64,000 bases of DNA from an uncultured Desulfobacter sp. (GTDB lineage Bacteria > Desulfobacterota > Desulfobacteria > Desulfobacterales > Desulfobacteraceae): positions 800,001 through 864,000 of the forward strand of contig OY762069.1 in the NCBI GenBank assembly GCA_963665095.1. The letters are read 5' to 3'. Shown in pieces: positions 2,869 to 26,049 of this stretch (position 1 is the first letter of the stretch; each line of letters opens with the position of its first letter). The notes beneath the pieces were generated by a model, which saw nothing but the letters and a program-made list of their open reading frames with translations, was not told the DNA's origin and searched no databases. The translations under genes and the position numbers were made by a program.

Positions 2869-2895
2869 TCCTGAACAGTGTCCATCCGTTAAAGA

Positions 2896-2940
2896 GAAAA
2901 AAGCCTGCTGAAACGGGCATGGTTTGGCAGGCTACTCCTT
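2896..2940. terminator. Hairpin after STAS gene (possible intrinsic terminator)
   Basis: AGCCTGCTGAAAC...GTTTGGCAGGCT inverted repeat with an A-run on its left side. Confidence 0.4.
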
Positions 2941-3100
2941 AGAAGGAGATTGTTTCCAAAATACACCCGGGCTGTTTTATTTCAAAGATCTTGTCTTTGT
3001 GTTGGCCGGGTGCTATTAGAGCATAGGTGGGGAACCTTGTTTTTCAGCCATTCTTAACTTTCTAATACCCAAGCGGGAAAATGCCAAAACGGGAGCAGCA

Positions 3101-3481
3101 ATGAGCGGTAATGCAGTCAGGCGTCATGACCCAAACGATGGCCCGGTTCAGATTCGTCACATTGATCTTGAATCAGGCGGCAGGGTCAGTGTGGTTTCAA
3201 AAAAGGACGGGGAACGTGTTCAGATCTCAGCGGGTGACGATCGGCTTTTTATGGAGATCAGGTTTACCCCGGAAGGACCGGTTGTCTCTTTAGATGGTGC
3301 CTGTCTCGAGTTGTCTGCAACCCGTGAGATATCCCTGGATGCGGAAAAGGTAAATATTCGGTCTAAAAAGAACACCGAAATTAGCAGCCACGGGACTTTA
3401 AAGATTGATATACAAGAGGATGTGGATCTTCAATCTGATCAGGAGATCCGTTTACAGGGCAAAATGATCCATTTAAATTAA
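3101..3481 (+). CDS. Small gp5/VgrG-C-terminal-like beta-helix protein (putative spike tip adaptor)
   Basis: ~8-residue beta-strand repeats (ELSATREISLDAEKVNIRSKKNTEISSHGTLKID) ending QGKMIHLN, like VgrG C-termini; 10 nt upstream of PAAR gene. Confidence 0.5.
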   Translation: MSGNAVRRHDPNDGPVQIRHIDLESGGRVSVVSKKDGERVQISAGDDRLFMEIRFTPEGPVVSLDGACLELSATREISLDAEKVNIRSKKNTEISSHGTLKIDIQEDVDLQSDQEIRLQGKMIHLN

Positions 3482-3491
3482 AGGGACTGAT

Positions 3492-3875
3492 ATGCCGCCA
3501 GCTGCACGTGTGTCAGATTTAGTATTACAGGATAATCCCCATTGCCATGCCCCCATTCATCCACCGGCTCCGGTCCCGGCCACAGTACCTCATCCCGCAG
3601 TGCCGCTGGCTATTGTCAAAGGAGCCACCACGGTCTTTATCGGTGGATTACCGGCAGCCACGGCTACCAGTACAACAGCCCCGTGTACCCCGGCCGGATG
3701 TACACCTGCAGGCCCCGGTGTTGTGGCCAAGGGTTCTGCCACCGTTTTTGTGCAGAATCTGCCTGCTGCACGGGTTAATGATACCACAGCCCATGCCTCC
3801 TGTGTGGCACCGGTTCCGGGGGCGACCGGGAAGATTCTCCCTCCGGGATGTTTAACTGTGATGATCGGAGGATAA
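3492..3875 (+). CDS. PAAR domain spike-tip protein
   Basis: PAARVSD, PAATATS, PAARVND motifs; His/Cys metal ligands; ends TVMIGG. Confidence 0.92.
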   Translation: MPPAARVSDLVLQDNPHCHAPIHPPAPVPATVPHPAVPLAIVKGATTVFIGGLPAATATSTTAPCTPAGCTPAGPGVVAKGSATVFVQNLPAARVNDTTAHASCVAPVPGATGKILPPGCLTVMIGG

Positions 3876-3900
3876 TGCCATCAATCCAGTCCATTTTGAC

Positions 3901-5010
3901 ATGCTTAAGCCGGTCTGCCCCCTGTGCCGGAAAGATGGACGGGGTGAAAACAGGCTTGAGATTTATCAGGTTTTAAAGCAAGATGACGGGGATATAGACC
4001 AGGGGATTCTGACCTGCACCCACCCTCAGTGCCGGTGCGAATACCCGATTATTGATGGTGTCCCGGTCATTGTGGCTGATATAAGGCACTATGTCACCCA
4101 CAGTGCCTATCCCATTATCAGACGAAACGATCTATCGGAGTCTCTGGAATCTCTTATAGGCGACTGCATGGGACCGGGGTCGGTGAATGACCTGATGCGT
4201 CAGCATTTAAGTTCCTACGGGTATGATCATTATGAAGGTATGGATTCCGGTGCCTCAGTCACTGATGACCGGGCCAAAAGAGATGGGCCGGCTGACGGTG
4301 TGCCTGGGCCGGGGGCCTGCGCAGGACTGATGCTCAGAAATCTGGAAGGGATGAACGCAGCCTCCTCGGGCCCGATAATTGACCTTGGATGTTCAGTGGG
4401 GCGGACTACTTTTGAGGTGGCACGATATTTTAAAGAGCTTACCCTTGGTATTGATTTGAATTTTAATATGATCAAAGCTGCGGCCAGTGTCTTGAAAACA
4501 GGCTTTTTTAGCTACCCTAAACGAAAAACCGGCATGGTATATGAACAAAGGTGCATCAAGACCCCGTTCAAAGCAGAGAAAAACGTTGATTTCTGGGCCT
4601 GCGATGTGTTGAATCTGCCGTTTTCCCGGAATCAATTCGGTTTCGCCGTCAGCATGAACCTGCTGGATTGTGTGTCAGAGCCGTTTTCTTATCTTCAGGA
4701 GGTGGAACGTATACTAAAGCCGGGTGGTCAGGGCCTGATGTCAACGCCCTATGACTGGAATACAAATGCCGTGCCTGTGGAAAACTGGCTGGGTGGGCAC
4801 TCACAAAGAGCTGAGTCAGGGGGGCGCAGCGAAGTGATGATCCGCTCCCTTTTTGCCGGTGGCAGTCATTCCCATGCATTAAAACAGCTTGGCCTGGTAT
4901 ATGAAAAAGAAAATCAGCCGTGGCCGGTAAGGGTTCATGAACGCAGTACCATGCAGTATCTGGTTCATGTGATGGGCATTGAGAAACACAATAAGGGGAC
5001 AGGGGAATGA
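3901..5010 (+). CDS. Class I SAM-dependent methyltransferase with N-terminal Trm112-like Zn-ribbon
   Basis: CPLC...LTCTHPQC..YPIIDGVP N-terminus; IIDLGCSVGR SAM motif; DVLNLPF; LKPGG. Confidence 0.85.
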   Translation: MLKPVCPLCRKDGRGENRLEIYQVLKQDDGDIDQGILTCTHPQCRCEYPIIDGVPVIVADIRHYVTHSAYPIIRRNDLSESLESLIGDCMGPGSVNDLMRQHLSSYGYDHYEGMDSGASVTDDRAKRDGPADGVPGPGACAGLMLRNLEGMNAASSGPIIDLGCSVGRTTFEVARYFKELTLGIDLNFNMIKAAASVLKTGFFSYPKRKTGMVYEQRCIKTPFKAEKNVDFWACDVLNLPFSRNQFGFAVSMNLLDCVSEPFSYLQEVERILKPGGQGLMSTPYDWNTNAVPVENWLGGHSQRAESGGRSEVMIRSLFAGGSHSHALKQLGLVYEKENQPWPVRVHERSTMQYLVHVMGIEKHNKGTGE

Positions 5011-5345
5011 CAGACAAAATAGACAAGTTGTTTTCACCGGAACGGCTTCGGGGGAAATGGTCAATGGATACAAGGGCGTCTAAAAACCCTGTTGCGTTTG
5101 ATTTACCCCGGGTGTCTGAAAAATACAGCGCCATTTTCCTGGAACTGCGGGATGTAATATTTCATAAATTTTCAGACGATATCCGCCTGCTTCTGGATAA
5201 TATGATGGAGGAACTGGAGAACAGTCTGGCTTCGCGCTTTCCTGCCACAGGTGTGCAATCACTTTCCCAGGAGGAAATTGCCGCACTTAATATTGCCATT
5301 GATCAGATTCTCACTCAAATGGAAGATTTGACGGAACATGCTTAA
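5007..5345 (+). CDS. Hypothetical helical acidic protein in PAAR operon
   Basis: 112 aa ORF, ATGA overlap with the methyltransferase, 3 nt before tssG. Confidence 0.7.
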   Translation: MTDKIDKLFSPERLRGKWSMDTRASKNPVAFDLPRVSEKYSAIFLELRDVIFHKFSDDIRLLLDNMMEELENSLASRFPATGVQSLSQEEIAALNIAIDQILTQMEDLTEHA

Positions 5346-5348
5346 GTC

Positions 5349-6248
5349 ATGGATGAATTTAAAATGGCACCACAAGTAGAATCATCTGCCGGCACCCTTA
5401 GAATTCAAAAGAAAATATCAGGACGAATACATGATTTTGATTTGATCTCCTTGGTACGGGTGTTGTGCCATATCGGTTATGCCATGGAGGAGATCATATT
5501 TGAAAGTGACAACAGTCTGTGCTCCCAGGCAGGCTTGATTCAGCAGGTCCGATTTTTAAAGGACCCTACAAAACAGGTAATTATCAGCCTTAATATGGGC
5601 CTTTTAAGCGCACAATCCCCGCTGCCCAGCTATTTCCAGAAAAATATCGATAAAAGCCTGATGGATGTGACGGCATTTTACGAATTCATTGGTTACTTTG
5701 ACCATATACTGATGTTTCAGTTTTTAAAATCTGTTTATCCTGAATTGAATCTGAATCCCGCCTTTGATTTACAGTCCCTTAAAGAAACGACCCTTGGCAT
5801 GCTGGATATAAAGTGCCTGACAACTTTGGACTGGCTTTTCAGGCTGGTTTTTCCGGAGCTTGAGGTCCGTGTTGAAAAGGGGTTGGTTCTAAGGCAGGTG
5901 ACCATGGTGCCGTTGATTCTGGGTAAGGCTGTTTTAGGAGAAAACAGTGTGTTTGGGGACCAGACGAAAATAATGGTATCAGGCCGAAATGTTACGTTAT
6001 TTTCCATGGACGAATTGAGTGATTTGGGAAAGCCTTGGCCCAAAGAAATTAAAGAACGTCTTAAGTCGCATATTTTTCCAATTTTGAGGAACATGGGCGT
6101 AGATCTTCAGGTATCGTTAGTTATAGAATCCCAGAAGCAGTGGGCCCGACTCCATACTGATACGTATCTTGGGTATGATAAAATTACCGGCGGCACCGAG
6201 CAATACAAGCGGATTCGGATATTTAAGGGACATCTTTCCCCGAATTGA
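5349..6248 (+). CDS. tssG: T6SS baseplate subunit TssG (IglJ-like)
   Basis: LNMGLLSAQSPLPSYF and FIGYFDH motifs of the TssG family; T6SS context. Confidence 0.75.
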   Translation: MDEFKMAPQVESSAGTLRIQKKISGRIHDFDLISLVRVLCHIGYAMEEIIFESDNSLCSQAGLIQQVRFLKDPTKQVIISLNMGLLSAQSPLPSYFQKNIDKSLMDVTAFYEFIGYFDHILMFQFLKSVYPELNLNPAFDLQSLKETTLGMLDIKCLTTLDWLFRLVFPELEVRVEKGLVLRQVTMVPLILGKAVLGENSVFGDQTKIMVSGRNVTLFSMDELSDLGKPWPKEIKERLKSHIFPILRNMGVDLQVSLVIESQKQWARLHTDTYLGYDKITGGTEQYKRIRIFKGHLSPN

Positions 6249-6419
6249 TGGTGTGCAAGAATGCGTTTTACCTGATTCTGACCATTAGCCAACCACCGAA
6301 AATCACAAAAAAGATACCGTTTATCATCATTTTGTTGACCCAAGGACGTGTATTTAATACCTGAATTTGTACTAGGTTATTTTATAAAGTGTAAACATGA
6401 CTATTTTTATGACATTGCT

Positions 6420-6560
6420 ATGCGGACAATACGTTGAATTAATGAAAAATTAATAATTTTCATTTTAGACATGCAATATAATGAAAAAATTATTATCAGT
6501 TTATTTTTTTTAAAGAATACGTTATGAATAACTAACCTGTATAAGGTTTATTCAATATCG
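6420..6560. promoter_or_regulatory. AT-rich regulatory region of main T6SS operon with palindrome and direct repeat
   Basis: AATGAAAA-N8-TTTTCATT (6441-6464); TAATGAAAAA repeated at 6440 and 6479. Confidence 0.35.
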
Positions 6561-6584
6561 CTTTTGGAGATTAATACATAAAAA

Positions 6585-7763
6585 ATGGATTGGCGTCAGT
6601 TAGATATCGAATTCCAGGTTTCTGAAGATCCGGGATTGGGAACCCTTGATCCACGGTTTGTTGAGATCGCCGGAATGATTCAGGAGAGTAATTTCTCTGC
6701 TGCGGCCCGGCAGGCCCAGGAGGTTATTGAGGAAGAAATATACGATATCAGGATTATCAGTTACTTTCTCTACGGGGTTTTCGATGAACAGGGGCCAGGC
6801 TCTCTTTACGGTATTTTAAAGGTATTATCCAATGTGCTTACCCAGAACTGGGATGCCGTCGGCCCTTTAAAAAATCGCGAAAAGCAAGTAAAAAACAGTT
6901 TAACCTGGTTTTTCAAGCAGACAAATAAAGTGCTGGAAACACAGGAGAAAAAAGAAGGCCCGGAATGGGGAAAATGGCTTAGTGAAACGGCTTCAGACGA
7001 TATACATGAAGCCATTGAAATGGGGAACGATTTCAAGGCAAATGCAGGCCGTACCCTTGAAGATCACGCCTCAGCGATTATTGATCAGGTGGCCAGGACC
7101 CTGGCATGGCTTGACAGTTTTTACCGACTGATTTACCAGGAAGAGCCTGATGCAAGTGAAGAGGAAGAGGCTGATTTTGATTCGGAGGAAGATGCCGATG
7201 ACCCTGAATCGCCGGACGCCTTCGAAGAAGATACAAGGCCTTACACCAATGAGCAGTCTGCTGCAGGGGGATCATGGCCTGGTGTTGGTCAGGCAGACAA
7301 CACAGGCGGCGGCTCATATTTGCTCCAGCAGCTTATCAGGAAGATGGCCCTGTTTGAGCGCCTTCTTGCAGAAAATAAAAATACCGGTGCGGCCCTGGTG
7401 GCTGATGACATCAATAATATTCTGGCTGATTTTGACCCCCAGGTCTATTTCCCGGAAATTTTTTCCGGTTTTGCCATGCAGTACGCATTGAATGTCGAAA
7501 AAATACTTCCCTTTCAGGGATGCCAGAATTCACCGGTGTGGCAGGCCGCAGACAACCTCTACCGGGTAGATATGGAGCGTTTTGCTGCAATGAATAATGG
7601 ATTCCACAATCAGGAACCAGACGCCTTTGCCAGGTCTGACTCATATGCACAAGAAGATGCCGGTAACCCAACTAGCTACAATCAGGATAACTATAATCAG
7701 GATCAAAACGGTTACGATGTTGAAGAGGATTATTATGGGGAAGATGAGGATGACGACTTTTAA
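6585..7763 (+). CDS. T6SS IglI-family / TssA-like protein with acidic low-complexity tail
   Basis: ImpA_N-like N-terminus (LDPRF..I, YDIRIISY), FDPQVYFPEIF C-domain; first gene of T6SS operon. Confidence 0.65.
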   Translation: MDWRQLDIEFQVSEDPGLGTLDPRFVEIAGMIQESNFSAAARQAQEVIEEEIYDIRIISYFLYGVFDEQGPGSLYGILKVLSNVLTQNWDAVGPLKNREKQVKNSLTWFFKQTNKVLETQEKKEGPEWGKWLSETASDDIHEAIEMGNDFKANAGRTLEDHASAIIDQVARTLAWLDSFYRLIYQEEPDASEEEEADFDSEEDADDPESPDAFEEDTRPYTNEQSAAGGSWPGVGQADNTGGGSYLLQQLIRKMALFERLLAENKNTGAALVADDINNILADFDPQVYFPEIFSGFAMQYALNVEKILPFQGCQNSPVWQAADNLYRVDMERFAAMNNGFHNQEPDAFARSDSYAQEDAGNPTSYNQDNYNQDQNGYDVEEDYYGEDEDDDF

Positions 7764-7904
7764 TCATGACATTTTTTTAAAATTTCATGGCTGCTTTTCA
7801 GTCGTGTTCTAATTTTCATGGTTGTATTTCCAATGTTATCTGCAGGTTGATCTATGGCTGACAATATCTATAGGCCTGCAATATATTAGGACGTAAGCTA
7901 TATT

Positions 7905-8414
7905 ATGAATTGTAAAGGCTGTGGTAAAGAAATTTGTGGCGATGATTTCCGGAAAGTCGCAGACTGGTATTTTTGCCAGGACTGCTTTCAGGGGCTTATG
8001 CAGCCTTCTGATTCAGACACTGAATCCGGTGCCTCTCAGGATGCCAGCGGGGCAGGGGGGCATGATGCTTTGTCCGATACTGAAAACAGCCAGATTTCGA
8101 GACAAAATGTGAAAAAAAAGAGTTGCGAAGTCTGCCAGGCTGAATTAGAGGAAGGTAGCGGGAAAAAGTTAGGCATCTGGCTGCTTTGCGATACCTGCTT
8201 CAACGATATGAATGCCTCAGTAAGACCAGATACCCCTGAGCCGGAGAGCGCTGAGGCGGATCTTGAGGAAGAGACAGATGAAACAGACAGCCGTCCCCCC
8301 GTTGATATGAATAAAACCATTCCATGCCATTCCTGCGGTCGCGTAATACTGGCGGTTGGAGCCAAAGAAGAAGATGGGCAGTATTTTTGCCCGGATTGCT
8401 ACTACAAAAAATAA
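7905..8414 (+). CDS. Cys-rich protein with three CxxC...CxxC zinc-finger-like units
   Basis: CKGC..CQDC, CEVC..CDTC, CHSC..CPDC separated by acidic linkers. Confidence 0.75.
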   Translation: MNCKGCGKEICGDDFRKVADWYFCQDCFQGLMQPSDSDTESGASQDASGAGGHDALSDTENSQISRQNVKKKSCEVCQAELEEGSGKKLGIWLLCDTCFNDMNASVRPDTPEPESAEADLEEETDETDSRPPVDMNKTIPCHSCGRVILAVGAKEEDGQYFCPDCYYKK

Positions 8415-8514
8415 CATGTGCTTAAGATTTACCTCTTAAGTTACCTCGGTTGACCGTAATTTCATAATAGCTTGAAACAGCGGCCGGCTGTAAATTTTTA
8501 ACAGAGGACAATTT

Positions 8515-10164
8515 ATGTTTTCTGAAACCCTGGAAATAAGCCTCTCGCTGGAAATTAGTGGCAAGTTATGCGAGATCCCCGGAGGTAACGTTCAGTTGTT
8601 TGAACTTGATCTTTATCCTTATGGATTCAGGGGGCGGGTTGGATTTGGTGTTCTTTTGGATGCAACTGAGGTGGATGAGCTGTTTGAACCATTTATTACC
8701 CATGATCTGATAACCGTTCAATTTCAGGTCAACCGGACAGACGACCTGCTTGACGATTCACCCAAGCCAGTTTCCGTTAAAGGTCTTGTAACGGAAAAGT
8801 CCATGAGAGAGACGGAATATAAAGAGGTGAAAAAGGAAAAGGTCCTGTGCCGATATTATGAAGTCTGGTTCCAGGATGGCCCCAGCATGTTGTGGCGCCA
8901 GCACTATCCTGTGGCGCTTTATACAGAGAAGACCATAGCCGATGTAGTTAAGGAACAGGTTGCTGAAAATATTTTATTTGAGATTGAAAAAGGTATCCTG
9001 GAAGATATGCCGGATATGGTTTTTCTCGGGCTGGAAAAACGGATTGAGGGACCCTGTTTTTATGATTTTTTGATGTGGTTGTCATGGTTCAGAAGTGTTG
9101 TTCCGGTTTATGATTACGAAGCTCAAAAACTCAAACTGATCAAGACAAAAAAAGACGCAGACTTAACAGGGGAGGTGGACAATTTCCTTTACCCCAATGA
9201 GGTGGATGATATTTTGATTCAGTTTCCGGAGACAGTCCGGCATGATACGCGGCTTCTTAATGCATATTTCGATCCTGAGATGGCCCAGACCATAGATAAG
9301 TTCCAGGATCAGAAACTGGATTACAGCCAGGCTGCTGAGGGGATTACCCAGGATATTGTTTTAAGGACACCTCGTGAAGAGGACTTAGATAAACGAAAAG
9401 AGCTGGAAACAAATATTTTCAACCTGTTTGAAGAAAAATTGCTTTTTGAGATGGATCAGTTTCCTTCCAGAACCTGCCTGATTGGTTACATGCTGAAACT
9501 GGATGAAAATCACTGGGCCAAGGATCGGTTTATTTTTGGTAAAAAATACAGGGTGTATGAAATCCATATGTCTGGGAAAGCTGAAGATGAGAACCTGTCG
9601 GGAAACTACAACAACGAATATGCCAAATACAATATGGAAATGAGTATCCGCCTGGAACCGGAAACATGCCCTCAGATCCACTTTCCAACCTTTAAATCCC
9701 CCAATTATCCAGTTTTTGTGGAAGGAAAAATCGTCAGTGAAGTGGGGGAAGAGACAGATAAAACCTATCAGTTTTACAATAACGACACCACATCCCAGGA
9801 TGAATACACCGTTTATGTGCCATTGTGGGATTTGAATATCAAGGCACCGTTTGTTCCAGGTATTTTTACCGGCCATTTTTATTTTCCCGCATTCAGAGAT
9901 GCCCGGGTTTTACTGGCGCTCTATTTTGACCATGCCGAAATATTGCGCTTTCTAGACTGGGGCCAGGGATCCAGGCTTCCCATGGATACCCAGGGCAACC
10001 ATATTCTGTTCGGCAAAAATGCTGACAGCCAGACCTCAATGCGGCATGTGTATGATAACGGCAAGCCCGAACTGACCATTGAACGGACCAGTGACAAGGA
10101 CACGGAGCTGATTCAGATCAAGGAAGAAACCATTATCATTCAAACCAGGGATAAGGAAGAATAA
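8515..10164 (+). CDS. VgrG N-terminal-like hub protein (gp27 + OB-fold; PdpA-like), lacking long beta-helix
   Basis: 549 aa; RYYEVWFQD...LWRQH and VFVEGKIVS...GHFYFPAFRDARVLL segments correspond to VgrG gp27/OB regions; ends after a few short strands. Confidence 0.65.
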   Translation: MFSETLEISLSLEISGKLCEIPGGNVQLFELDLYPYGFRGRVGFGVLLDATEVDELFEPFITHDLITVQFQVNRTDDLLDDSPKPVSVKGLVTEKSMRETEYKEVKKEKVLCRYYEVWFQDGPSMLWRQHYPVALYTEKTIADVVKEQVAENILFEIEKGILEDMPDMVFLGLEKRIEGPCFYDFLMWLSWFRSVVPVYDYEAQKLKLIKTKKDADLTGEVDNFLYPNEVDDILIQFPETVRHDTRLLNAYFDPEMAQTIDKFQDQKLDYSQAAEGITQDIVLRTPREEDLDKRKELETNIFNLFEEKLLFEMDQFPSRTCLIGYMLKLDENHWAKDRFIFGKKYRVYEIHMSGKAEDENLSGNYNNEYAKYNMEMSIRLEPETCPQIHFPTFKSPNYPVFVEGKIVSEVGEETDKTYQFYNNDTTSQDEYTVYVPLWDLNIKAPFVPGIFTGHFYFPAFRDARVLLALYFDHAEILRFLDWGQGSRLPMDTQGNHILFGKNADSQTSMRHVYDNGKPELTIERTSDKDTELIQIKEETIIIQTRDKEE

Positions 10165-10259
10165 GGCTGCCTTAAGTGAAAAGGCCATGTATGCAACTAA
10201 AATTTAAGAAAATATAGAAATCATCATGTACGTTAATTAATTACAGATGGAGGAACGCC

Positions 10260-12860
10260 GTGATAATTGAAAATTTTTCAATGAAAGCCCAGGGTGCCAT
10301 TGAAAGTGCCTGTCGTCTGGCCGTTAAAAAAGAACATCAGAATGTCACCCCCTGGCACATGCTGGCCGGGATACTTGAATTTGAGCAGGGCAAGGCTGTG
10401 GCGCCCCTGTTCGAGAGTGCCGGTGTGGATGCGTCGTCCCTTGAAAACCGGATCAATTCCCATCTGTTAACCCTTGCCAAGGCCTCTTCCGACAGCCAGG
10501 AAACGCCCATGAACCGTGAGCTGGAAAAAATATTTATCCGGGCGGAAGAGGAGGTGGATGCCTCAGGGGATAAATATATCGGCATGAGCCATATCCTTCT
10601 GGCCATGCTGGAGAACAAAGACATTGCAGAGGCTTTTCAGGAAGCCGGTGCCGGCAAGGAGGCCTTTTCAAAGGCATTAAAGGAAGGTGGAAAGGGGTTT
10701 GGCAAAGGCGGCAAGCTGTCCCAGGATTTTGAATATCTCAACACCTATACCACGGATCTGACGGCCCGGGCCAGGGAAGGCGGGTTTGACCCCATTATCG
10801 GCCGGGACAATGACATCCAGCTCATTGTCCAGGTATTAAGCCGCAGAATTAAAAGCAACCCGGTGGTCATTGGCGAGCCTGGTGTGGGGAAAACAGCCAT
10901 TGTGGAGGGCCTGGCCCAGCGCATTGCAAAAAAAGAGGTGCCCAAGGATCTGGAAAATGTCACCATCCTGGCCCTGGATATGGGCCAGCTTCTGGCTGGG
11001 GCCAAATTCAGGGGCGAGTTTGAAGAGCGCTTCAAACGGGTGATCCAGGAGATCACCGATGCCGGGGATATCATTTTATATATTGACGAGCTTCACATGA
11101 TTGTCGGCGCCGGCGGTGGTTCAGAAGGGGCCATGGATGCGGCCAACCTGCTGAAACCCGCACTGTCCAGAGGCGAGATCCGGTGCATGGGCTCCACCAC
11201 CCTGGAAGAGTATCGCAAGTATATTGAAAAGGATACGGCCCTGATGCGACGGTTTCAGACGGTCATGGTGGCAGAACCCACGGTGGATGAAACCCTGACC
11301 ATTCTTCGGGGCATCAAGGAAAAATATGAAATGCACCACGGTGTCCATATCATGGATTCAGCGCTCACCGCGGCAGCCAAGCTTTCCCACCGCTATATAA
11401 CAGACCGGTTCCTGCCGGATAAAGCCATTGACCTCATCGACCAGACCGCAGCCACAGTCCGTATAGAGCTTGCCTCCAAGCCCAAAGAAATTGAGGCCCT
11501 GGACCGTAAAATTGTCCAGCACAAAATAGAGCTTCGTGCCCTGGAAAATGAGACCGATGAAAAAATGGTCGCAAAAATGGAAGAGACCCGTGCCATCCTG
11601 TCGGAACTTGAAGCGGAAAGCGGGAAACTGACTGAAAAATGGGAAAAAGAGAAAAATGCCATTACTGCCGTTCAGGAAGCTACCAGGGAACTCGAGGCTG
11701 CCAGAAAAGAGTTGGAAGTCAAGATTGCCGAAGAGGATTTCGCCCGGGTGGCCGCCCTGCAGTATAAGGTGATCCCCAAACACGAAAAGATCCTTGAAGA
11801 GTATGCAGATATTGATGTGTCCGATTCAAAATTTGCCGCCAGGGGCATCACGGACCAGGATGTGGCCGGCACCGTGGCTGAACTCACAGGTATCCCTGTC
11901 TCCAAAATGATGGGTGAGGAAAAAGACCGGCTGATTCATCTGGAGGAACATCTGCAGAAACGGGTCAAGGGCCAGGATCACATCACCGAAGTCATTGCCA
12001 AGGCCGTGCGGCGGGCAAGAGCCGGGGTCCAGGATGCCCAGCGCCCCATGGCCTCCTTTCTCATGCTCGGCCCCACCGGCGTGGGCAAAACCGAGCTTGC
12101 CAAGACACTGGCTGAGTTCATGTTCAATGACGAAGCCGCCATGATCCGTTTTGACATGAGCGAATTTATGGAAAAACACTCTGTGGCACGGCTGGTGGGA
12201 GCCCCTCCCGGATATGTGGGCTATGATGAAGGCGGCCTTCTGACCAACAAAGTTCGGCGCAAACCCTATTCCGTTATTTTGTTTGACGAGGTGGAAAAAG
12301 CCCATCCTGATGTGTTTAACCTCTTCCTTCAGCTTTTTGACGACGGAAGGCTCTCAGACAGCCAGGGTCAGGTGATTAATTTCACCAATACCATTGTGAT
12401 TATGACATCCAACCTGGGTGCAGATCATATTGCCCCGGTTGAAACCGAGGAAGAGGAAAAGGCCATGAATCAGGCGGTGATGGAGGCTGTCCGTTCCCAT
12501 TTCCGGCCAGAATTTCTGAACCGGCTGGATGATATTCTCATGTTCAAACAGCTCACCATGGAGGTGATGAAGCCCATCGTCAATATCCAGCTTGCAAGGC
12601 TTGAAAAACTTCTGGCCGATAAACAGATCAGTCTTCATGTGGCAGAGGAGGCCAAGGAGCTTCTGGCAAAGGAAGGCTATAATCCGTTATATGGTGCAAG
12701 GCCTTTGAAACGCGTGATTCAGAGCCGTCTGCAGGATCTTCTGGCAGAAAAAATTATTCAGGAGGAGATCAAAGAAGACCAGACTGTGTACGTATCAACC
12801 CAGGATGACGATCTTGTGATTAACACGGATGAACCCGCGGAATCGGAAGAAATTCAGTAA
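10260..12860 (+). CDS. clpB: ClpB-type AAA+ ATPase, T6SS-encoded (TssH role)
   Basis: GTG start with GGAGG RBS; Walker A GEPGVGKT and [27 protein letters not shown]; full coiled-coil M-domain; TAATG coupling to tssM. Confidence 0.9.
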
Positions 12861-16471: not shown

Positions 16472-16496
16472 ATGCCACTGGAGAGTTAAAATCTAA

Positions 16497-16958: not shown

Positions 16959-16991
16959 TGCCGTTTAAGCCCCCGGAAGGTTAAAAGGACA

Positions 16992-18698: not shown

Positions 18699-18738
18699 GA
18701 AAATGGACATGTTATAAACATAACTCAAAGGAGGTAGT

Positions 18739-19266
18739 ATGGCGATTCAGGATGAAATACCAAAATCCAGGTTAACCTTAAGGTACAAAACAGAGGTGAA
18801 CGGCCAGCCCGAAGACTTGACCCTGCCCATGCGGTTTCTGGTTACAGGTGATTTCTCCCAGGGCTCTTCCAAAGACCGCAAGGTGGATCTCGATGAGAGA
18901 AGTACCCGTAACATGAATGGGAAAAACACCGATGCCATAATGAAAGATATGGGAATTCGCCTTAATTACGCGGTTTCCAATAAAATCAATCCGGACCAGG
19001 AGGAGGATCTCCAGGTGGATCTGCCCTTTACCGGCATGAGATCTTTTTCTCCGGATGAGGTGGCCAAGAATGTGCCCAAAATCAAGGGACTGCTCAAGCT
19101 CAAGGAGCTTTTGGAAGAGGTGGTGTCCAATGTGGACAACCGCAAAGGGTATCGCAAACTGCTTGGTGAACTGATGGCGGATGAAGAGGCCTTGAAAAAG
19201 ATGATGGAAGAGCTCAAAGAGTTTGAGAGCTTTAAACTGCCTTCTGCAGGCGCAAAAACTGAATAA
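18739..19266 (+). CDS. tssB: T6SS contractile sheath small subunit TssB (IglA-like)
   Basis: IPKSRLTLRY...LPMRFLVTGDFS...FSPDEVAKNVP; GGAGG RBS. Confidence 0.95.
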   Translation: MAIQDEIPKSRLTLRYKTEVNGQPEDLTLPMRFLVTGDFSQGSSKDRKVDLDERSTRNMNGKNTDAIMKDMGIRLNYAVSNKINPDQEEDLQVDLPFTGMRSFSPDEVAKNVPKIKGLLKLKELLEEVVSNVDNRKGYRKLLGELMADEEALKKMMEELKEFESFKLPSAGAKTE

Positions 19267-19292
19267 CGGATAAACAATTAAGGAGAAATAAT

Positions 19293-20789
19293 ATGGCTGA
19301 TACAGATCAGACAACCGAAACCCAGGAAGCCATAGATCTGAAACGGTTTCTGTCCAGCATGCGCCTCAATACGGAGGTGGCTGATCCTACCCCCATGATT
19401 ACAGACAACCTTGAAACTATTATTGAGGATGTCAGTGAGGAAAACCGGTTTATCTCCGGGATGGCGGCATTCCTGTTCAATGTGGACACCTCTTCCGGAC
19501 GTTTGGACAAGGGGGCTATTTTTGAAGTCATTGCCCGCATTGACACCATGGTCAATGACCAGGTCAATGAGATCATTCAGAACGACCAGTTCAAGGCCCT
19601 GGAGTCCAACTGGCGCTCTTTGAACGATCTGATCCTCAACACCAACTTCAAGGCCGATGTCATGATCGATATTCTGGACGTGACCAAGGAGGAGCTGTTT
19701 GAGGATTTTGAAAGCAATGCCGTGGACATCACCGGCAGCGCCCTGTTTCAAAAGGTTTACATTGCAGAGTATGACCAGTACGGTGGAAAACCCATGGGCT
19801 CCATTCTCGGGCTGTATGAATTTGAACATACCCCGGATGATGAGTTCTGGCTTAGAATCATGGGCAAAGTTGCCGCAGCAAGCCATGCGCCTTTTGTGGG
19901 ATCGGTCTCCCCGAAATTTTTCGGCTGCGATTCCGTAAAGGAACTGGACGCGATCAAGGATCTTGAAGGTCTGATGAACCATCCAAAATACGGCTCCTGG
20001 AATAAGCTTCGGGAATCCGAAGAGGCGGCTTATATCGGGTTGACGCTTCCCCGGTATATTGCCCGGCTCCCCTATGATCCGGAAAGCAACCCCTGCCGGG
20101 AAATTAATTTCACTGAAAAGGTGACCGGAGATAACGACAAAGATTACCTGTGGGGCAGCGCAGCTGTCCTGTTTGCCCAGAACATGGTCAGGTCCTTTGA
20201 AACCTCGGGCTGGTGCCAGTATCTCAGAGGCCCCAAAGGCGGCGGCCTGGTCAGCGGGCTGCCGGTTCACATGTTTAACATCCGGGGTGAAGACGAGATG
20301 AAGGTACCTGTGGAGATGGTGATCCCGGATTACAGGGAACTGGAGTTTGCCAACAGCGGATTTATTCCTTTGATTTACCGCAAGGGCACCGCTGATGCCT
20401 GCTTTTTTTCCTGCCAGTCCATAAAGAAACCCAAAAAGTTCAAAGATCCCAAGGACAGTGAGAATTCCCAGCTGGTTACCAACCTGTCCTACACCTTTTC
20501 CATCACAAGAATTGCCCATTATCTCAAATGCATCATGCGTGATAACATCGGCAGCTCTGCAGATGCGGCATACATTAAAAACAGCATTGAAAACTGGATT
20601 TCAAAGTATGTCACCACCGTGGTAAATCCTGATGATCTGACCCTGAAATACTATCCGTTCAAGGCATACTCCGTAAATGTTGAGGAACGCGAAGGCATGA
20701 TCGGCTGGTATGACTGCTCGGTTGGTATTCTGCCCCATATCCAGTTTGAAGGCATGGACGTGGAGCTGCGACTGGATGCCAGATTGTAA
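19293..20789 (+). CDS. tssC: T6SS contractile sheath large subunit TssC (IglB-like)
   Basis: FKALESNWRSL, EYDQYGGKP, AAASHAPF, RLPY, YLWGSAA, RIAHYLKCIMRDNIG, PHIQFEG. Confidence 0.97.
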   Translation: MADTDQTTETQEAIDLKRFLSSMRLNTEVADPTPMITDNLETIIEDVSEENRFISGMAAFLFNVDTSSGRLDKGAIFEVIARIDTMVNDQVNEIIQNDQFKALESNWRSLNDLILNTNFKADVMIDILDVTKEELFEDFESNAVDITGSALFQKVYIAEYDQYGGKPMGSILGLYEFEHTPDDEFWLRIMGKVAAASHAPFVGSVSPKFFGCDSVKELDAIKDLEGLMNHPKYGSWNKLRESEEAAYIGLTLPRYIARLPYDPESNPCREINFTEKVTGDNDKDYLWGSAAVLFAQNMVRSFETSGWCQYLRGPKGGGLVSGLPVHMFNIRGEDEMKVPVEMVIPDYRELEFANSGFIPLIYRKGTADACFFSCQSIKKPKKFKDPKDSENSQLVTNLSYTFSITRIAHYLKCIMRDNIGSSADAAYIKNSIENWISKYVTTVVNPDDLTLKYYPFKAYSVNVEEREGMIGWYDCSVGILPHIQFEGMDVELRLDARL

Positions 20790-20911
20790 CAGGCAATTAA
20801 TAAAAATACCGGGGCGATATCATTCGTCTCGCACCGTTTTCAAACTTAGCACAATGTTCCGGATAAACTTTTGGATTTTAAACAAAATATGCTTTTAAAA
20901 AGGAGAGAATC

Positions 20912-21484
20912 ATGGCAGATTTGAGTTTTAGTTGCAGTATTGACCAGGGATTTAACTTTCATCCCGATGCCCAGGATTACGTAGGACATCTGACCACCCT
21001 TAAAATCGGAGGGGTAGAAATTAAGGCCAACCTTGAGGTGACCAATCCCGCAGAGAGCACCGGGGATAATGTGCCTGTGGTCGGCGTGCTCAGCGACATT
21101 TTCTGGGGCGGTGGATTTGCAGAGGGTATTAATTTCAGCGCCCAGGTAAATGTGAACAATAAAACCGAACTTGCAAAACTTCAGCATTCTGATTTGAGCA
21201 ACACCGAAGTGACGTTCTCATTTAACGTTTATGCCTATGATCAGGCCGCCAAAAAGTTTTACCTGGCATTCCATTCCAACGAGACGGACCTTGAAGGGCT
21301 GGTGGAAAAACACGGTTCGGAGCTTAATTTTAATATAGAGATGGATCCATCGCCTGAAGTTGCCAACCCGCTTAACTTTACGCTGACGCTTGGGGTTATG
21401 CCCAAGGAACTTGCCCAGGAGGTTCATGTGGCGGTTTCTGATACGGATAAGTTTGTCAAACAATGGGGTGTTACCGTATCATAA
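20912..21484 (+). CDS. Probable tube protein (non-canonical Hcp, IglC-like)
   Basis: 190 aa beta-rich protein between tssC and tssK (iglA-iglB-iglC-iglD order), strong AAGGAG RBS; no canonical Hcp elsewhere in the cluster. Confidence 0.7.
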   Translation: MADLSFSCSIDQGFNFHPDAQDYVGHLTTLKIGGVEIKANLEVTNPAESTGDNVPVVGVLSDIFWGGGFAEGINFSAQVNVNNKTELAKLQHSDLSNTEVTFSFNVYAYDQAAKKFYLAFHSNETDLEGLVEKHGSELNFNIEMDPSPEVANPLNFTLTLGVMPKELAQEVHVAVSDTDKFVKQWGVTVS

Positions 21485-21524
21485 TTTTTTATTTACCAAG
21501 AAAACCGCAGAAGGGAATTGATTT

Positions 21525-22766
21525 ATGACAGATAATCTTGCTCGGGTAAAATGGGAAATGGGGCAAACCCTTCTGCCTGTTCACTTCAGGGCCCAGGAAG
21601 ACGCCCTGCTTGCGGAATCCGTATTGCGGTTCCGGATGCAGGGCCTTCCGGCCTATGGTGTGGCTGAGCTGGTATGGAGTCCCACCCTGATTAAGGACGG
21701 GGTGGTTTCCGTCCAGTCTCTGACGGCTGTTTTTCCCTCGGGGTTGATGGCTCAGGTGCCGGGAAATGCCAAAGTCTCCCCTTTCAACCTCAATGTGCCG
21801 GGTGATGTAACCGTTGGGCTCTACTGCCATCTGATGGTGGACAAAGGCCAGGAAGAGAATGTGGATGAAACCTGGGACACCGGGGAGGAAAAGGATGTTA
21901 CCAGACACCATTACACCTTGGCTTTAACCTCGGAGCAAAGCACGTCAGGGGCACTTGAGACGCTGAAACTGGCCCAGTTCAAAAAAATGCCGGACAATAC
22001 CTGGCAGCTTTCCAAAGAGTATATCCCCCCGCTGCTTCAGGTGGGACTTTCTCCGTTTTTGCAGGATGCTTTGGAGGCGCTCAGCCAGGCCCTGGAACTG
22101 TTTCATTACAATCTGGCCCTGGATGCATCCGGATTCCTGTCCGGAGAAAGCCTTCAAAATGTTAAACAATGTATGAAAAGCAGCCTGAAAATGCAGCGGA
22201 CCATTGCCAATATCAATGGGCAGATTCACTGTCATCCCTATTTTCTTTATGAAATTCTGGCTGAGTTTTATACCGAGGTGAGCTATTACCGGAAAGTGGT
22301 GCCGGAAAATGTCACAGAACCCTACCGGCATGAACAGCTGGCAGCCTGTTTTGACCGGTTGCTTACGCCGTTGATGAAACAAATGCAGATGATGGAGGAA
22401 AAATCTCCCTATCTTGCGTTTGAATTCAAAGACGGGGTGTTCCGTCTGGATCTGCCTTCGGAAATCCGGGAAGCCAGGGATGTCTATTTTCTGGCCCAGA
22501 AAGGTCATGTTACAGACAAGGTGGACGTGTCCGGCATCAAGCTTGGCAGTTTTGCCCGCATCGGGTTAATCCACAAAATGGCCCTGCCGGGGGTGCCGTT
22601 GAAAAAAACGGAAAAACCGCCTTTTCAGCACTCATTTGGTTCCGAGGTGGATTTTTTCAGGGTTGTGGAGGGTGAGGAGTGGGACCAGGCACTGAAGGCG
22701 CTCTCCCTGGCCTTTTACCACCAGGATATGTATACCGGGATTGAGTTCTTCCTGTACTGGAGATAA
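21525..22766 (+). CDS. tssK: T6SS baseplate subunit TssK (IglD-like)
   Basis: RVKWEMGQTLLPVHFRAQE, YIPPLL, HPYFLY, PYRHEQL, ALPGVPL. Confidence 0.9.
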   Translation: MTDNLARVKWEMGQTLLPVHFRAQEDALLAESVLRFRMQGLPAYGVAELVWSPTLIKDGVVSVQSLTAVFPSGLMAQVPGNAKVSPFNLNVPGDVTVGLYCHLMVDKGQEENVDETWDTGEEKDVTRHHYTLALTSEQSTSGALETLKLAQFKKMPDNTWQLSKEYIPPLLQVGLSPFLQDALEALSQALELFHYNLALDASGFLSGESLQNVKQCMKSSLKMQRTIANINGQIHCHPYFLYEILAEFYTEVSYYRKVVPENVTEPYRHEQLAACFDRLLTPLMKQMQMMEEKSPYLAFEFKDGVFRLDLPSEIREARDVYFLAQKGHVTDKVDVSGIKLGSFARIGLIHKMALPGVPLKKTEKPPFQHSFGSEVDFFRVVEGEEWDQALKALSLAFYHQDMYTGIEFFLYWR

Positions 22767-22777
22767 GTCGTTCATCC

Positions 22778-23155
22778 ATGGCATTGTTTAAAAAATTTAT
22801 GATCAAAGAGGACCCTACCTGGGACGGGAGCAGAGATATTGTGGATAATTTGAACAATATCCTGAACACCAAAAAAGGGTACGGATCCATCCTTGACGAT
22901 TATGGCATCAGGGATTTGAACGAGTTCAGGGACAAGGAGGGTATCACTGATGTCATCGTGGAGGAAGTGATCCGGTGCGTTGCCAAATATGAGCCCCGGG
23001 TTAAAATTATCCAGGTGGACAAAGAGAAAGGCAGCGGACTCTTTCAGCTTTCATTCAATATTCAGTGCATGATCAGGGAGACCCGTCAGAGCATGAATAT
23101 GGTATTTGATACCGTGGGCAGCCAATTTACGATAAAAAAAGGGAAAAACAGGTGA
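22778..23155 (+). CDS. tssE: T6SS baseplate subunit TssE (gp25-like)
   Basis: LNNILNT, DYGIRD, YEPRV motifs. Confidence 0.9.
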   Translation: MALFKKFMIKEDPTWDGSRDIVDNLNNILNTKKGYGSILDDYGIRDLNEFRDKEGITDVIVEEVIRCVAKYEPRVKIIQVDKEKGSGLFQLSFNIQCMIRETRQSMNMVFDTVGSQFTIKKGKNR

Positions 23156-23158
23156 TAC

Positions 23159-23734
23159 ATGGGATCTCTGGTCTGCCGCATTGAACTGCATAAACAGGAC
23201 GGGATTACCGTTACCGTTGAAAACGGGGATGATGGCATTACCCAGACCATCGTCATGGACGGGCAGACCATCACCACTACCTGCAAAGGGTCTGACGACA
23301 CCAGTACCATTACCCAGGCCCCGGACAGCATTACCATCAAATGCAAGGACTTCAAGGTTGATGCAGACACCATCACCTGCGAGTCTTCTGCGGAAACCAC
23401 GCATAAAAGCGGCAAGGACTATACCGTGGAAAGTTCTGCGACAATGGATTTGTCCGCCTCAAAGACCTTGGATGCCACTGCTTCCTCAGCCATGACACTG
23501 ACAGGCAAAAGTGTGGATGTAAAGGCATCGTCAACCGGGGACGTGGCCATTTCAGGTAAAAATGTGGCATCAACCGCCAGCATGAAAGCGTCCCTTTCCG
23601 GCAAGCAGTTTGAGGCAAGCGGCTCAATTTCAGCCAAAGTATCAGGTGGCAAGGTGGATGTTGACGGGAAAATGACCACAGTGAACGGATCCACTGCCAC
23701 TGTAATAAAGGGCACTGCTATTAAAATCGGATAA
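23159..23734 (+). CDS. vgrG: Short VgrG needle (gp5 C-terminal beta-helix only)
   Basis: 191 aa Ser/Thr-rich with ~8-residue beta repeats ending VIKGTAIKIG; sits between tssE and tssF. Confidence 0.7.
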   Translation: MGSLVCRIELHKQDGITVTVENGDDGITQTIVMDGQTITTTCKGSDDTSTITQAPDSITIKCKDFKVDADTITCESSAETTHKSGKDYTVESSATMDLSASKTLDATASSAMTLTGKSVDVKASSTGDVAISGKNVASTASMKASLSGKQFEASGSISAKVSGGKVDVDGKMTTVNGSTATVIKGTAIKIG

Positions 23735-23752
23735 AGGGGCACAATACCCAGC

Positions 23753-25363
23753 ATGGAAATGGATGAACAGTTATACCGGGCATTTCTTGAGCAGATGCAT
23801 GAACTTGATAATTTTCGTATGGAATACGCGTCCCGGCATCCGTCTGCCCCTCTGGACCGGGATGACCCCGATGTCAAACGCCTGGTGGAGGCCATGGCCT
23901 TTTTTTCCGCCCGGACCCACATGGCTGGTCTGGATAATATTGTAGCGTCCCGGCTCAGAATTTTTCAGCAGTTTTTCCCTTTTCTGCTCTCACCCTTGCC
24001 TGCCATGGGAATGGTTCAGGCACAGCCGACAGGCCAGTTTTCAGAAACTGCGCTGCTACCCAGAGAGACCCGGTTCCTGGTCTCTTCGCCCAAAGGTGAC
24101 GGGTGGGTCTGCCGTACCATGAAAGATCTTAGAATCCTTCCTGTTTTTTTAACGGAGACAAAACTTCTGATGCGCCCCAATAAGGGGTACCGCATGATAA
24201 TGGCCTTTGAATCCGGATATGAAAGGGCAGACACCATAGGGAAGATAGCGGTTTACCTGGATCATTTAAACAGTTACCAGGCCTCTTTAATGTTGTTTGA
24301 TGCCTTGAAAACCAACTTGGTCCGCGCTTCTGTGGTATTTGATAAAAAAACGGATGAGCAGATTATCGGCATGCCCTGTGAGGTATCGTTCGGCACCTTG
24401 CCGGATGAAGAGGCCCTTGATCAAAGAAAGATGCATCCGCTTCAGCAGGCAAGAACTTTTTTTCATTTTCCCTGGCAGGAACTGGTCATGACCATTGATG
24501 TGCCCCAGACAAACCTGGCCTGGAAAAAATTTTATGTTTGTCTGGATCTGTCTGATAAATGGCCGCGTAAACTGCCTGTTAATAAAGATGTATTCCGGCT
24601 GCACACAGTGCCTGTGGAAAATATAAGCCGGGAATCCACAACACCGATTGTATATGAAGGCACAAAAGAGCGGTTTCTGATCCGCCATCCTGATCCGACA
24701 CTGGGGTTTGAGCTTCAGACTATTCTTGGGGTATATAAAATCAGGGATGGGGGTATGGTGCCGGTTAAGCCGGGTATTTTGTCCGGGGGTGAGGGCACAT
24801 ATGAGATTTCACAGAAAACAGATTCGGTCAAAGGCAGCCGTTACTGGCTGTGCATGCACGACCCTTCTGCGTTTGTTGAACCGGTTACAGTGGTCCTTGA
24901 CGGATTGTGGCACCAGCCTGACTTTTCTCGGAATTTTTCACAGATGCTTAAAACACGGCCATACAGCCGGACCATTGCAGGCGTGAATTGGGATTTGTGC
25001 GAAAATATGGTCAGATCCCTGCAAAACCGGTTTCAGGAAAATATGGATGAATATATTCACCTGCTTACCATTAAAAATAAATCTGCCTTGAATTTTGATG
25101 ATATCTGTGCCCTTATTCAAATGCTGGGCACCGTGTGGCAGGGAGATTATAAACCGGTAAAAGACCTGTTTTACGCAGTGAGGGTGGAGCAGGCTCCGAG
25201 AGCCGGCGGTTTGCTTAAACAGATTTACCATCTTCGGTTCAGACATTGTGAACCCGTCACCCTTCCGCTGGTCAGCACGTTTACCCAAAAGCTTGGACGG
25301 ATTCTGGATGTGTGGATTTCAGAAGTGGTTGTTGAAACCCGTATGGAGATGGATAGGGCATAA
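23753..25363 (+). CDS. tssF: T6SS baseplate subunit TssF (IglH-like)
   Basis: DDPDVKRLVEAMAFFSART, FPFLLSPLPAM, FFHFP, FRLHTVPVEN. Confidence 0.9.
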   Translation: MEMDEQLYRAFLEQMHELDNFRMEYASRHPSAPLDRDDPDVKRLVEAMAFFSARTHMAGLDNIVASRLRIFQQFFPFLLSPLPAMGMVQAQPTGQFSETALLPRETRFLVSSPKGDGWVCRTMKDLRILPVFLTETKLLMRPNKGYRMIMAFESGYERADTIGKIAVYLDHLNSYQASLMLFDALKTNLVRASVVFDKKTDEQIIGMPCEVSFGTLPDEEALDQRKMHPLQQARTFFHFPWQELVMTIDVPQTNLAWKKFYVCLDLSDKWPRKLPVNKDVFRLHTVPVENISRESTTPIVYEGTKERFLIRHPDPTLGFELQTILGVYKIRDGGMVPVKPGILSGGEGTYEISQKTDSVKGSRYWLCMHDPSAFVEPVTVVLDGLWHQPDFSRNFSQMLKTRPYSRTIAGVNWDLCENMVRSLQNRFQENMDEYIHLLTIKNKSALNFDDICALIQMLGTVWQGDYKPVKDLFYAVRVEQAPRAGGLLKQIYHLRFRHCEPVTLPLVSTFTQKLGRILDVWISEVVVETRMEMDRA

Positions 25364-25393
25364 ACAGTGCCCCTCAGGAAATAAGGAAAAAAT

Positions 25394-26026
25394 ATGGAAC
25401 CCGAACTTTGGAAAGCCATTCAAGTCCTGTTTGCCACCATGGAGAGAGCCTTTGGCTTTAGAGAGGCAGATTGGGATTCTGACAATCCGTCTGATATCCA
25501 GATAGACCCGGAAAACCTTATCAAAGCCCGCTCCGAGATCCGGAAGGGGTTTGATGATCTCAGGATTACTTTATTGGGGAGCCTGTCCGAGCAGGAGACC
25601 TATCAGGTTCTTTTCCCTTTGGTTGTCTATGTGGATGAACTGGTTCAGGCCAGGTATTTTGGAAACAGACAGGTCTCATGGCCCCTGCTTCAAATGGAGC
25701 TTTATGAGGTGGATGACGGTGGCCGCCTGTTCTATGACACCCTGGATTCCATCCTGAAAAAACCCCAGACCTCCCAGTTTGTGTATGAAGTTCATTATTT
25801 TTGTCTGAAACACGGCTTTGAGGGAAAATATGTGGCAGACCCTGTCCGGATCAACAAATACCTGGAGCAGCTTAAGGAAAAGATTGCCATCTCTGACATG
25901 GACAGGATAGAAATTATGGCTGAAGAGACCGGGGAGATGAAATATTTTGCTTCTCCCGTATGGCTCTATGCCGGAGTGCTGATCTGTTTAATCCCGGTAT
26001 ACTGTCTGTTTAAGTTTCTGGCATGA
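25394..26026 (+). CDS. tssL: T6SS TssL/DotU
   Basis: VVYVDELV, WPLLQMELY..DDGGRLFY, EVHYFCLKHGFEGKY, C-terminal TM, no OmpA domain. Confidence 0.92.
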   Translation: MEPELWKAIQVLFATMERAFGFREADWDSDNPSDIQIDPENLIKARSEIRKGFDDLRITLLGSLSEQETYQVLFPLVVYVDELVQARYFGNRQVSWPLLQMELYEVDDGGRLFYDTLDSILKKPQTSQFVYEVHYFCLKHGFEGKYVADPVRINKYLEQLKEKIAISDMDRIEIMAEETGEMKYFASPVWLYAGVLICLIPVYCLFKFLA

Positions 26027-26049
26027 TATTGAGTTAGAGGATTTCGTAT

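Follow-up and report, generated by a model that had tools for sequence, protein, structure and literature searches.

Type VI secretion systems (T6SSs) of subtype ii are known from the Francisella pathogenicity island (FPI). In the parts of the literature available to us the subtype is stated to be exclusive to Francisella (PMC12955703, a 2026 paper; PMC10433429, a 2023 review) or is listed for Francisella only (PMC13577199; a 2026 preprint). Second, non-FPI islands also occur in the Francisellales, the F. novicida island being the described example in the available text of two papers (PMC5014421, PMC9600919). For Desulfobacter curvatus, the portion of one report that we could consult mentions a T6SS-linked PAAR gene and leaves the system untyped (PMC8651086). 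Here we compare these systems with a locus at positions 3101-26026 (forward strand, as are all its genes) of a 64,000-nucleotide stretch of DNA, hereafter the window, from an uncultured, sulfate-reducing Desulfobacter sp. (GenBank assembly GCA_963665095.1, contig OY762069.1, positions 800,001 to 864,000).

Judged by its gene content, the type VI secretion locus in this interval is intact and of the Francisella type (T6SS-ii), comprising 20 open reading frames (ORFs), none of them interrupted. We consider it highly probable that these genes specify an intact T6SS with a Francisella-type sheath and a predicted IglC-fold tube, likely a reusable, membrane-anchored contractile injector and likely aimed at neighbouring microbes. 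Pfam and NCBIfam models name TssB, TssC, TssK, TssE, TssF, DotU, TssM, PAAR, an IglE-type lipoprotein and an IglI-family protein. A preliminary description of the window, made from the letters alone, had its gene blocks in the right places, in uninterrupted forward-strand frames, including a tssG-like and an IglI-like gene; its inventory omitted a conserved 568-residue gene beginning at 16992. This is the sole T6SS locus found in the host genome, which is 97% complete and contains one TssC. Positions 6200-26100 are covered by contigs of all four sequencing runs compared, in one piece in two runs that may be the source; the other two represent strain variants, for which two indels are listed, both intergenic. 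In the passages of the open literature consulted, we found neither a description of type ii outside the Francisellales nor a link between IglI and TssA. The lineage is apparently undescribed so far, and widespread.

Sheath and tube

A search of GTDB genomes with an alignment of the tube protein returned 63 loci, 50 of which include TssC. These 50 are the related loci counted throughout, and per-gene counts among them are lower bounds, because the windows inspected were no longer than 20 kb.

The sheath subunits, TssB/IglA (18739-19266) and TssC/IglB (19293-20789), were assigned from family matches, matches to chains of solved structures and trees, supplemented for TssC by an approximately unbiased (AU) test. 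Both motifs that the preliminary description had quoted are present, and its impression that the two proteins lie nearer to IglA and IglB was borne out against solved structures, TssC scoring 432 bits with IglB versus 379 with the best T6SS-i chain and TssB 89 bits with IglA versus 80. In a TssC tree that included 20 references for T6SS-i together with three IglB sequences (L074, L078, one long-branch row and near-duplicates being left out), the lineage and IglB stood apart from T6SS-i with support of 100/100, accompanied by a long-branch warning. After addition of seven short-branched TssC proteins from Francisellales islands (41 rows picked from a larger set, again with near-duplicates left out), the split stayed at 100/100 and the warning disappeared; the lineage formed one side of a branch supported at 96/90, the Francisellales islands grouping at 90/89. 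The T6SS-i references numbered 19-20 and carry no formal subtype assignment. Forcing the lineage onto the nearest T6SS-i group, which was picked after the tree had been seen, was rejected by the AU test (p-AU 0.0006), and a TssB tree repeated the main split at 100/98. TssC therefore does not nest within T6SS-i, and, on the assumed root, TssB and TssC of this locus belong with IglA and IglB in a broad T6SS-ii clade as judged from these trees.

The preliminary description had inferred an intermediate T6SS lineage, which proves too weak a statement: TssC is 50-58% identical to its counterparts in non-FPI Francisellales islands (55-58% for some of them), 43-44% to IglB and 36-41% to T6SS-i proteins, placing the locus on the type ii side. 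The same data bear on a related possibility, namely a separate subtype, basal or intermediate between i and ii, in which the root would divide the Francisellales islands from everything else and the features shared with Francisella would be ancestral, not derived. Such a subtype would suit the lineage's own TssC branch (96/90), the T6SS-i-like possession of TssE, a Walker-A-bearing TssM, a locus Clp and Pfam-recognisable TssF and TssK, and three genes (for a pseudo-enzyme, a 112-residue protein and a CxxC protein) that occur in no Francisellales island examined. Against this, a short branch (about 0.18, versus about 1.0 to T6SS-i) separates the lineage from the Francisellales islands, TssB intermingles the lineage with those islands and the Clp protein is not ClpV; we regard a basal subtype as rather unlikely.

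The tube protein, of 190 residues (20912-21484), matched no family, and its assignment comes from a structural model (predicted local distance difference test score 94.5). Compared with 48,161 chains, the model gave IglC (2qwu) as the top match (Z 15.8, root-mean-square deviation 2.9, 177 residues aligned) versus a best Hcp score of Z 8.8, and in Foldseek IglC was the sole match with E < 0.001 (E 3.7e-7). A direct sequence match to IglC was not significant (0.3-3.6%) and no PDB sequence matched; through a bridge, the protein aligns at 96% with other Francisellales tubes and these at 73% with IglC. We predict that it folds as IglC and replaces Hcp. Because no Hcp match was found in the host genome (97% complete) and only one TssC is present, the search leaves the IglC-fold protein as the sole candidate for a T6SS tube.

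The tube family is larger than the set of loci, with 824 representatives. Some homologs (P0017, P0018, P0043, P0094, P0157 and others) are fused to Ig-like, type IX secretion sorting or thrombospondin domains, and tandem-repeat forms also occur. Tube-profile matches reach 3 to 7 per genome in some genomes of the genus Desulfobacter, and at 11 of the 63 loci the tube gene is an orphan with no T6SS around it (L006, L011, L016, L017, L020, L024, L029, L030, L033, L035, L064). The idea that these orphans are effector cassettes was rejected, their neighbours being mostly housekeeping-like.

Baseplate, membrane complex, spike and ATPase

The remaining structural roles were assigned by homology. Among 401 Gammaproteobacteria, the IglC family picked out two Francisellales genomes. 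Their islands served as reference, with genes named by gene order, size and family matches. Profile alignment (hhalign) against these islands linked TssC to IglB at 100%, TssB to IglA at 99.8%, DotU to its namesake at 99.3%, the IglI-like protein to IglI at 98.7%, TssK to IglD at 98%, TssM to PdpB at 95%, the hub to PdpA at 95%, the lipoprotein to IglE at 94% and the spike to VgrG at 86.5%. Decoys stayed below 1%; nine island proteins were matched, in selected pairs only. Unassigned ORFs thus found counterparts in IglC, PdpA, VgrG, IglE and IglI by hhalign or structure comparison, a check that, like the TssC tree, the preliminary description had itself proposed; both checks support the affinity with the Francisella island.

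TssK/IglD (21525-22766) scores 330 bits with TIGR03353, and TssF/IglH (23753-25363), a baseplate wedge protein, 96 bits with PF05947. TssG (5349-6248), an IglJ-like wedge protein, matches PF06996 below the cut-off (E 3.7e-5). Direct alignments of TssF with IglH and TssG with IglJ are weak (2-3%). With Francisellales-island proteins in a joint profile, TssF reaches IglH at 94%; TssG reaches the bridge proteins at 97.9% and these reach IglJ at 61%, a weak link. In the available part of an earlier study, IglH and IglJ were proposed to be TssF and TssG without sequence similarity (PMC9600919); sequence support for both equivalences is now available. The sheath initiator TssE (gp25; 22778-23155) exceeds the TIGR03357 cut-off of 53.2 narrowly at 54.1 bits, matches PF04965 and is present in 40 of the 50 related loci. 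The preliminary description was right to set it apart from the FPI: Francisella is described as having no TssE in the accessible text of the same study (PMC9600919), and six Francisellales islands gave no match.

In the membrane complex, TssM/PdpB (12860-16471; PF14331; TIGR03348, E 4e-13) bears, as had been noted, the Walker A motif GEAGSGKS, which is intact in 26/26 full-length TssM relatives versus 0/5 island PdpB/TssM proteins. The short DotU/TssL (25394-26026) scores 66.5 bits with PF09850. The hub-clpB-tssM-tssJ order had been read correctly, the label tssJ had not: the product of 16497-16958 is an IglE-type outer-membrane lipoprotein in the TssJ role, with a lipobox Cys and 78.5 bits to PF22361 (cut-off 26) versus 22 for TssJ. 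An IglE-PdpB-DotU membrane complex and counterparts of IglD, IglH, IglJ and IglI are thus all present by these profile matches, the IglJ link being weak.

VgrG is divided between two genes. The PdpA-like hub (8515-10164) corresponds to the N-terminal part, gp27-like plus oligonucleotide/oligosaccharide-binding fold; its nearest named Atlas clusters bear PF05954 and PF04717, and its alignment matched no PDB sequence and no plasmid. The short, Francisella VgrG-like spike (23159-23734) is encoded elsewhere in the locus, and in many relatives it directly follows the hub gene. The tip is a PAAR-motif protein (3492-3875; PF05488, 43.9 bits). A true PAAR had been claimed as a distinguishing feature; the protein is real here, but as a lineage trait it had to be rejected, with 0/50 related loci carrying one within the 20-kb windows and 13/50 carrying DUF4280, a profile that also matches IglG and finds nothing in the host genome. 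PAAR copies 69-76% identical adjoin the locus in three of five genomes tested, two of them without a DUF4280 match. In this locus the PAAR gene likely takes the place of the usual tip, the DUF4280 (IglG-type) protein found in other relatives, a swap within a sub-lineage. It belongs to a cassette that begins with a 126-residue protein, g126 (3101-3481), and ends with a methyltransferase, and that also lies beside the locus in 3/5 genomes tested. The g126 product, which contains a short spike-like beta-repeat and has weak NF033848 and NF041249 matches, aligns with the spike family at 73.5% (hhalign) and has a PAAR neighbour in G934 and G935.

These assignments also bear on a mosaic origin, in which a type ii sheath and tube would have been joined to a T6SS-i baseplate, membrane complex and ATPase. 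TssK, TssE and TssF do score with T6SS-i family models, and PAAR stands in place of DUF4280. The lipoprotein is nevertheless of the IglE type, hub and spike are of the PdpA/VgrG type, proteins of other Francisellales tie TssF to IglH and TssG to IglJ, and the same gene set travels together across phyla, all of which makes a mosaic very improbable.

The locus has its own Clp ATPase, as had been noted, and it is ClpB-derived. The protein (10260-12860) scores 1113 bits with ClpB versus 771 with ClpV, so that an assignment to ClpV is rejected by score as well as by tree, and a housekeeping ClpB is encoded separately at C1:5807289. In a quick tree, the locus Clp and its counterparts in G063 and G806 form one clade (SH-aLRT, a Shimodaira-Hasegawa-like likelihood ratio test, 100) that is sister to housekeeping ClpB and outside ClpV (95). 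Francisella sheath disassembly uses ClpB, according to the available part of one report (PMC5481754), and by analogy the paralog is likely the sheath unfoldase. ClpB use could be explained if ClpV was never present in the clade and ClpB was recruited on more than one occasion. A Shewanella locus (L100/L176, G064:C18:40798) took up a copy of a gammaproteobacterial housekeeping ClpB, which (L176) falls outside the locus Clp clade, and in G328 the only ClpB match directly adjoins an FPI-type island (L107:12325).

The IglI-family protein (6585-7763; NF041244, 280 bits, cut-off 100) has an N-terminal ImpA_N (TssA) domain, matched at E 2.2e-5, just under the Pfam cut-off. ImpA_N is matched in 27 of 66 family members (best 1e-8), the family matches the TssA chain 6rju at E 1.7e-5, and its alignment with IglI proteins from six Francisellales sequences, at 99.5%, covers residues 24-336 and with them the ImpA_N region. 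These alignments suggest that the TssA missing from type ii is likely IglI, and that the protein encoded here is likely a TssA equivalent and a likely assembly cap. In the accessible portions of two papers, TssA in Francisella is marked '?' (PMC5924787) and sheath assembly requires iglI (PMC5481754); an empty TssA slot and a need for iglI fit this assignment. Some non-Francisella proteins already bear the label 'IglI family' at NCBI, so that parts of the lineage have been noticed by annotators.

Relatives in other phyla and the position of the Francisella island

Carriers of related loci include Desulfobacterales, Syntrophales, Methylococcaceae, Pseudoalteromonas, Aliikangiella, Shewanella, Psychromonas, Zixibacteria and Planctomycetota, and the gene set is kept together across several phyla despite rearrangements. 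The preliminary description had looked to the host for novelty; with this range, the host is not special. Its statement that related loci are known from myxobacteria holds in so far as myxobacteria-like copies exist in sequence, and no published description was found. Proteins of Corallococcus and Archangium are homologs of the 568-residue protein, and one such homolog retrieved eight GC-rich metagenome loci, three of which span the 568-residue gene, sheath, tube and hub. The solved Myxococcus xanthus sheath (5urw) goes with an Hcp-type tube. Within the genus the locus is patchy (4/24 other genomes). At the level of the phylum, TssC occurs in 46/401 genomes; the best-scoring TssC proteins placed in trees are T6SS-i, and G806 has both types.

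With the FPI the Desulfobacter locus shares the sheath clade, the IglC-fold tube and a VgrG divided between hub and short spike. IglE, IglI, IglD and DotU are common to both as well, TssM/PdpB is predicted to have two membrane segments in each, and the recycling ATPase is of the ClpB rather than the ClpV type; the blocks iglABCD and pdpA-pdpB-iglE both have counterparts. Beyond the FPI it has TssE, a Walker-A-bearing TssM, a ClpB paralog of its own and a PAAR-motif tip, together with a methyltransferase, a CxxC protein and the adenylation-fold pseudo-enzyme, whereas it has no IglF match and no spare long ORF for PdpC- or PdpD-like effectors. In its predicted products it therefore departs from a strict FPI type, defined by an IglG (DUF4280) tip and the lack of TssE and of a locus Clp. 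Its nearest outside relatives are the second, non-FPI Francisellales islands, whose tube, TssF, TssG, IglI and DUF4280 link in both directions; the four examined gave no TssE match, no pseudo-enzyme match and no Walker A. Canonical T6SS-i shares the TssB, C, E, F, G, K, L and M roles, PAAR, Walker-A TssM and a locus Clp. Unlike it, the Desulfobacter locus has a separate sheath clade, an IglE-type lipoprotein for TssJ and TssA only as an N-terminal domain; the marks of T6SS-i (Hcp tube, fused VgrG, ClpV, TssC inside the T6SS-i clade) are all absent from its predicted gene set. T6SS-iii has a Bacteroidota-type membrane complex in place of TssJLM; the locus, by contrast, has TssM, DotU and IglE, and matched no Bacteroidota T6SS family.

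With moderate confidence, we lean towards T6SS-ii being a widespread environmental subtype. This lineage would represent it in full: it would have TssE, a TssM that binds ATP, a structural subunit derived from an enzyme and a ClpB paralog whose recruitment was independent of ClpV. IglI would be TssA, the Francisella island a stripped-down descendant and the IglC fold redeployed as a Sec-exported surface domain. The island of Francisella probably represents an offshoot, reduced and fast-evolving, of a wider clade that likely keeps parts Francisella lost. The locus and its roughly 50 relatives contradict the Francisella-only claim for T6SS-ii. They also provide deep alignments that the Francisella proteins lacked and, in IglI, a candidate to fill the unassigned TssA role. 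Harmless carriers in culture, among them Desulfobacter vibrioformis DSM 8776, open the machine to study; a TssC identical to that of D. vibrioformis occurs in one same-genus genome, which assigns the host to that genus. Scans based on Hcp or VgrG would overlook or half-annotate such systems.

Several observations weigh against reading the locus as a type ii injector of this kind. The TssB tree mixes the lineage with Francisellales islands and leaves it unresolved (33% of bootstrap trees). IglB is a long branch, although the shorter Francisellales branches yield the same split. The trees have their root assumed on T6SS-i and leave out T6SS-iii, so that 'ancestral' and 'lost' are inferences. The equation of IglI with TssA is transitive, because ImpA_N is matched directly in none of six Francisellales IglI proteins. 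A hydrophobic, signal-peptide-like N-terminus occurs in 47 of the best 150 tube-family representatives, as against 0/59 locus tube ORFs, and with the Ig-like and sorting domains it suggests that the IglC fold also serves outside injectors. The 568-residue gene was not found in four of five gammaproteobacterial genomes tested that carry the locus and hence is not universally needed. No recognisable toxin or immunity gene was found in the locus either, for which reason the injector's target is a guess.

Variation in related systems was also observed. TssC with an N-terminal extension of about 140-165 residues marks a sub-lineage in Alteromonadales and Zixibacteria (L022, L023, L026, L032, L043, L060), in several members of which TssM is only a short remnant and IglE is not nearby. 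At the Pseudoalteromonas rubra locus, DotU, TssM and IglE were not seen in the stretch fetched. Francisellales genomes often have 2-5 TssC genes (at least one in 48 of 65 scored), and in some a T6SS-i with ClpV stands beside several type ii island variants (G130:C16:603340-629149; G885, G887, G891, G923).

Proposed mechanism, accessory genes and surroundings

By analogy with known T6SSs and with work on Francisella, IglE, TssM and DotU would span the envelope, and TssK would dock a wedge of TssE, TssF and TssG around the PdpA-like hub, a trimer that carries the PAAR tip on the short VgrG spike. During polymerisation of the IglC-fold rings and the TssBC sheath, the IglI-like protein would serve as TssA cap; contraction of the sheath would drive out tube and spike, and the ClpB paralog would dismantle the contracted sheath.

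A silent relic or a non-killing device, serving adhesion, metal uptake or contact with a partner cell, would fit the lack of an effector found in the locus, its patchiness (4/24 other genus genomes) and the signal-peptide-bearing tube homologs, which suggest surface roles for the fold. Since all 20 ORFs are intact, the strain-variant indels are only intergenic and membrane, baseplate, tail and recycling modules are all kept, a dead relic is unlikely, and we judge the alternative as a whole to be quite improbable. Some related loci have candidate antibacterial cargo in or beside them, a peptidoglycan hydrolase (L057) and a phospholipase D (L101), and a Methylobacter locus (L099:1143-5058) encodes a DUF6765 protein and an Anthrax_toxA (adenylate cyclase-like) match between the pseudo-enzyme and clp genes.

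The 568-residue product (16992-18698) is an adenylation-fold (ANL) pseudo-enzyme matching non-ribosomal peptide synthetase and acyl-CoA ligase chains. The P-loop motif of adenylation enzymes is found in 0/31 aligned family members, and the gene is present in 34 of 50 related loci; most likely the protein is no enzyme and serves the tail or baseplate as an adaptor or structural component. Its presence agrees with that of TssE in 4/5 genomes, a co-occurrence that was not used, the genomes being related. It was considered as an IglF counterpart, being of the same size and adjoining the DUF4280 gene in myxobacteria-like loci, but no profile match supports this; a 13-sequence IglF alignment matched none of five families tried.

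The methyltransferase (3901-5010), S-adenosylmethionine-dependent by its PF08241 match (E 9e-14) and bearing an N-terminal Cys motif, lies immediately 3' of PAAR in 3/3 PAAR-bearing relatives. It is a candidate accessory or cargo protein and the only effector candidate in the locus. A conserved 112-residue protein upstream of tssG (5007-5345) matched no family and recurs in 23/50 related loci. The 169-residue protein encoded at 7905-8414 has repeated CxxC motifs, likely zinc fingers; it was detected in 15/50 related loci, and all loci seen with one are of Desulfobacterota type.

Partner-switching genes lie on both sides of the locus (window 765-2868 and 26050-28080), encoding an RsbW-like kinase, two STAS proteins, a SpoIIE fragment and a Cache-HAMP-SpoIIE phosphatase; this set is a possible regulator of the locus. 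RsbW and STAS genes also border the g126-PAAR-methyltransferase cassette in G934. A promoter and terminator scan of 2200-10400 gave no signal above chance, and base content gave no overall sign of lateral transfer (48.1% versus 48.7% GC). A second PAAR/gp25 site, at C1:1.31 Mb, was rejected as part of the T6SS: the region G000:C1:1296000-1318000 is that of a contractile-tailed prophage with PAAR-like and gp25 genes of its own. Further along the window, on the reverse strand (35778-37250), lies a gene for DNA polymerase IV with an in-frame C-terminal acylphosphatase domain.

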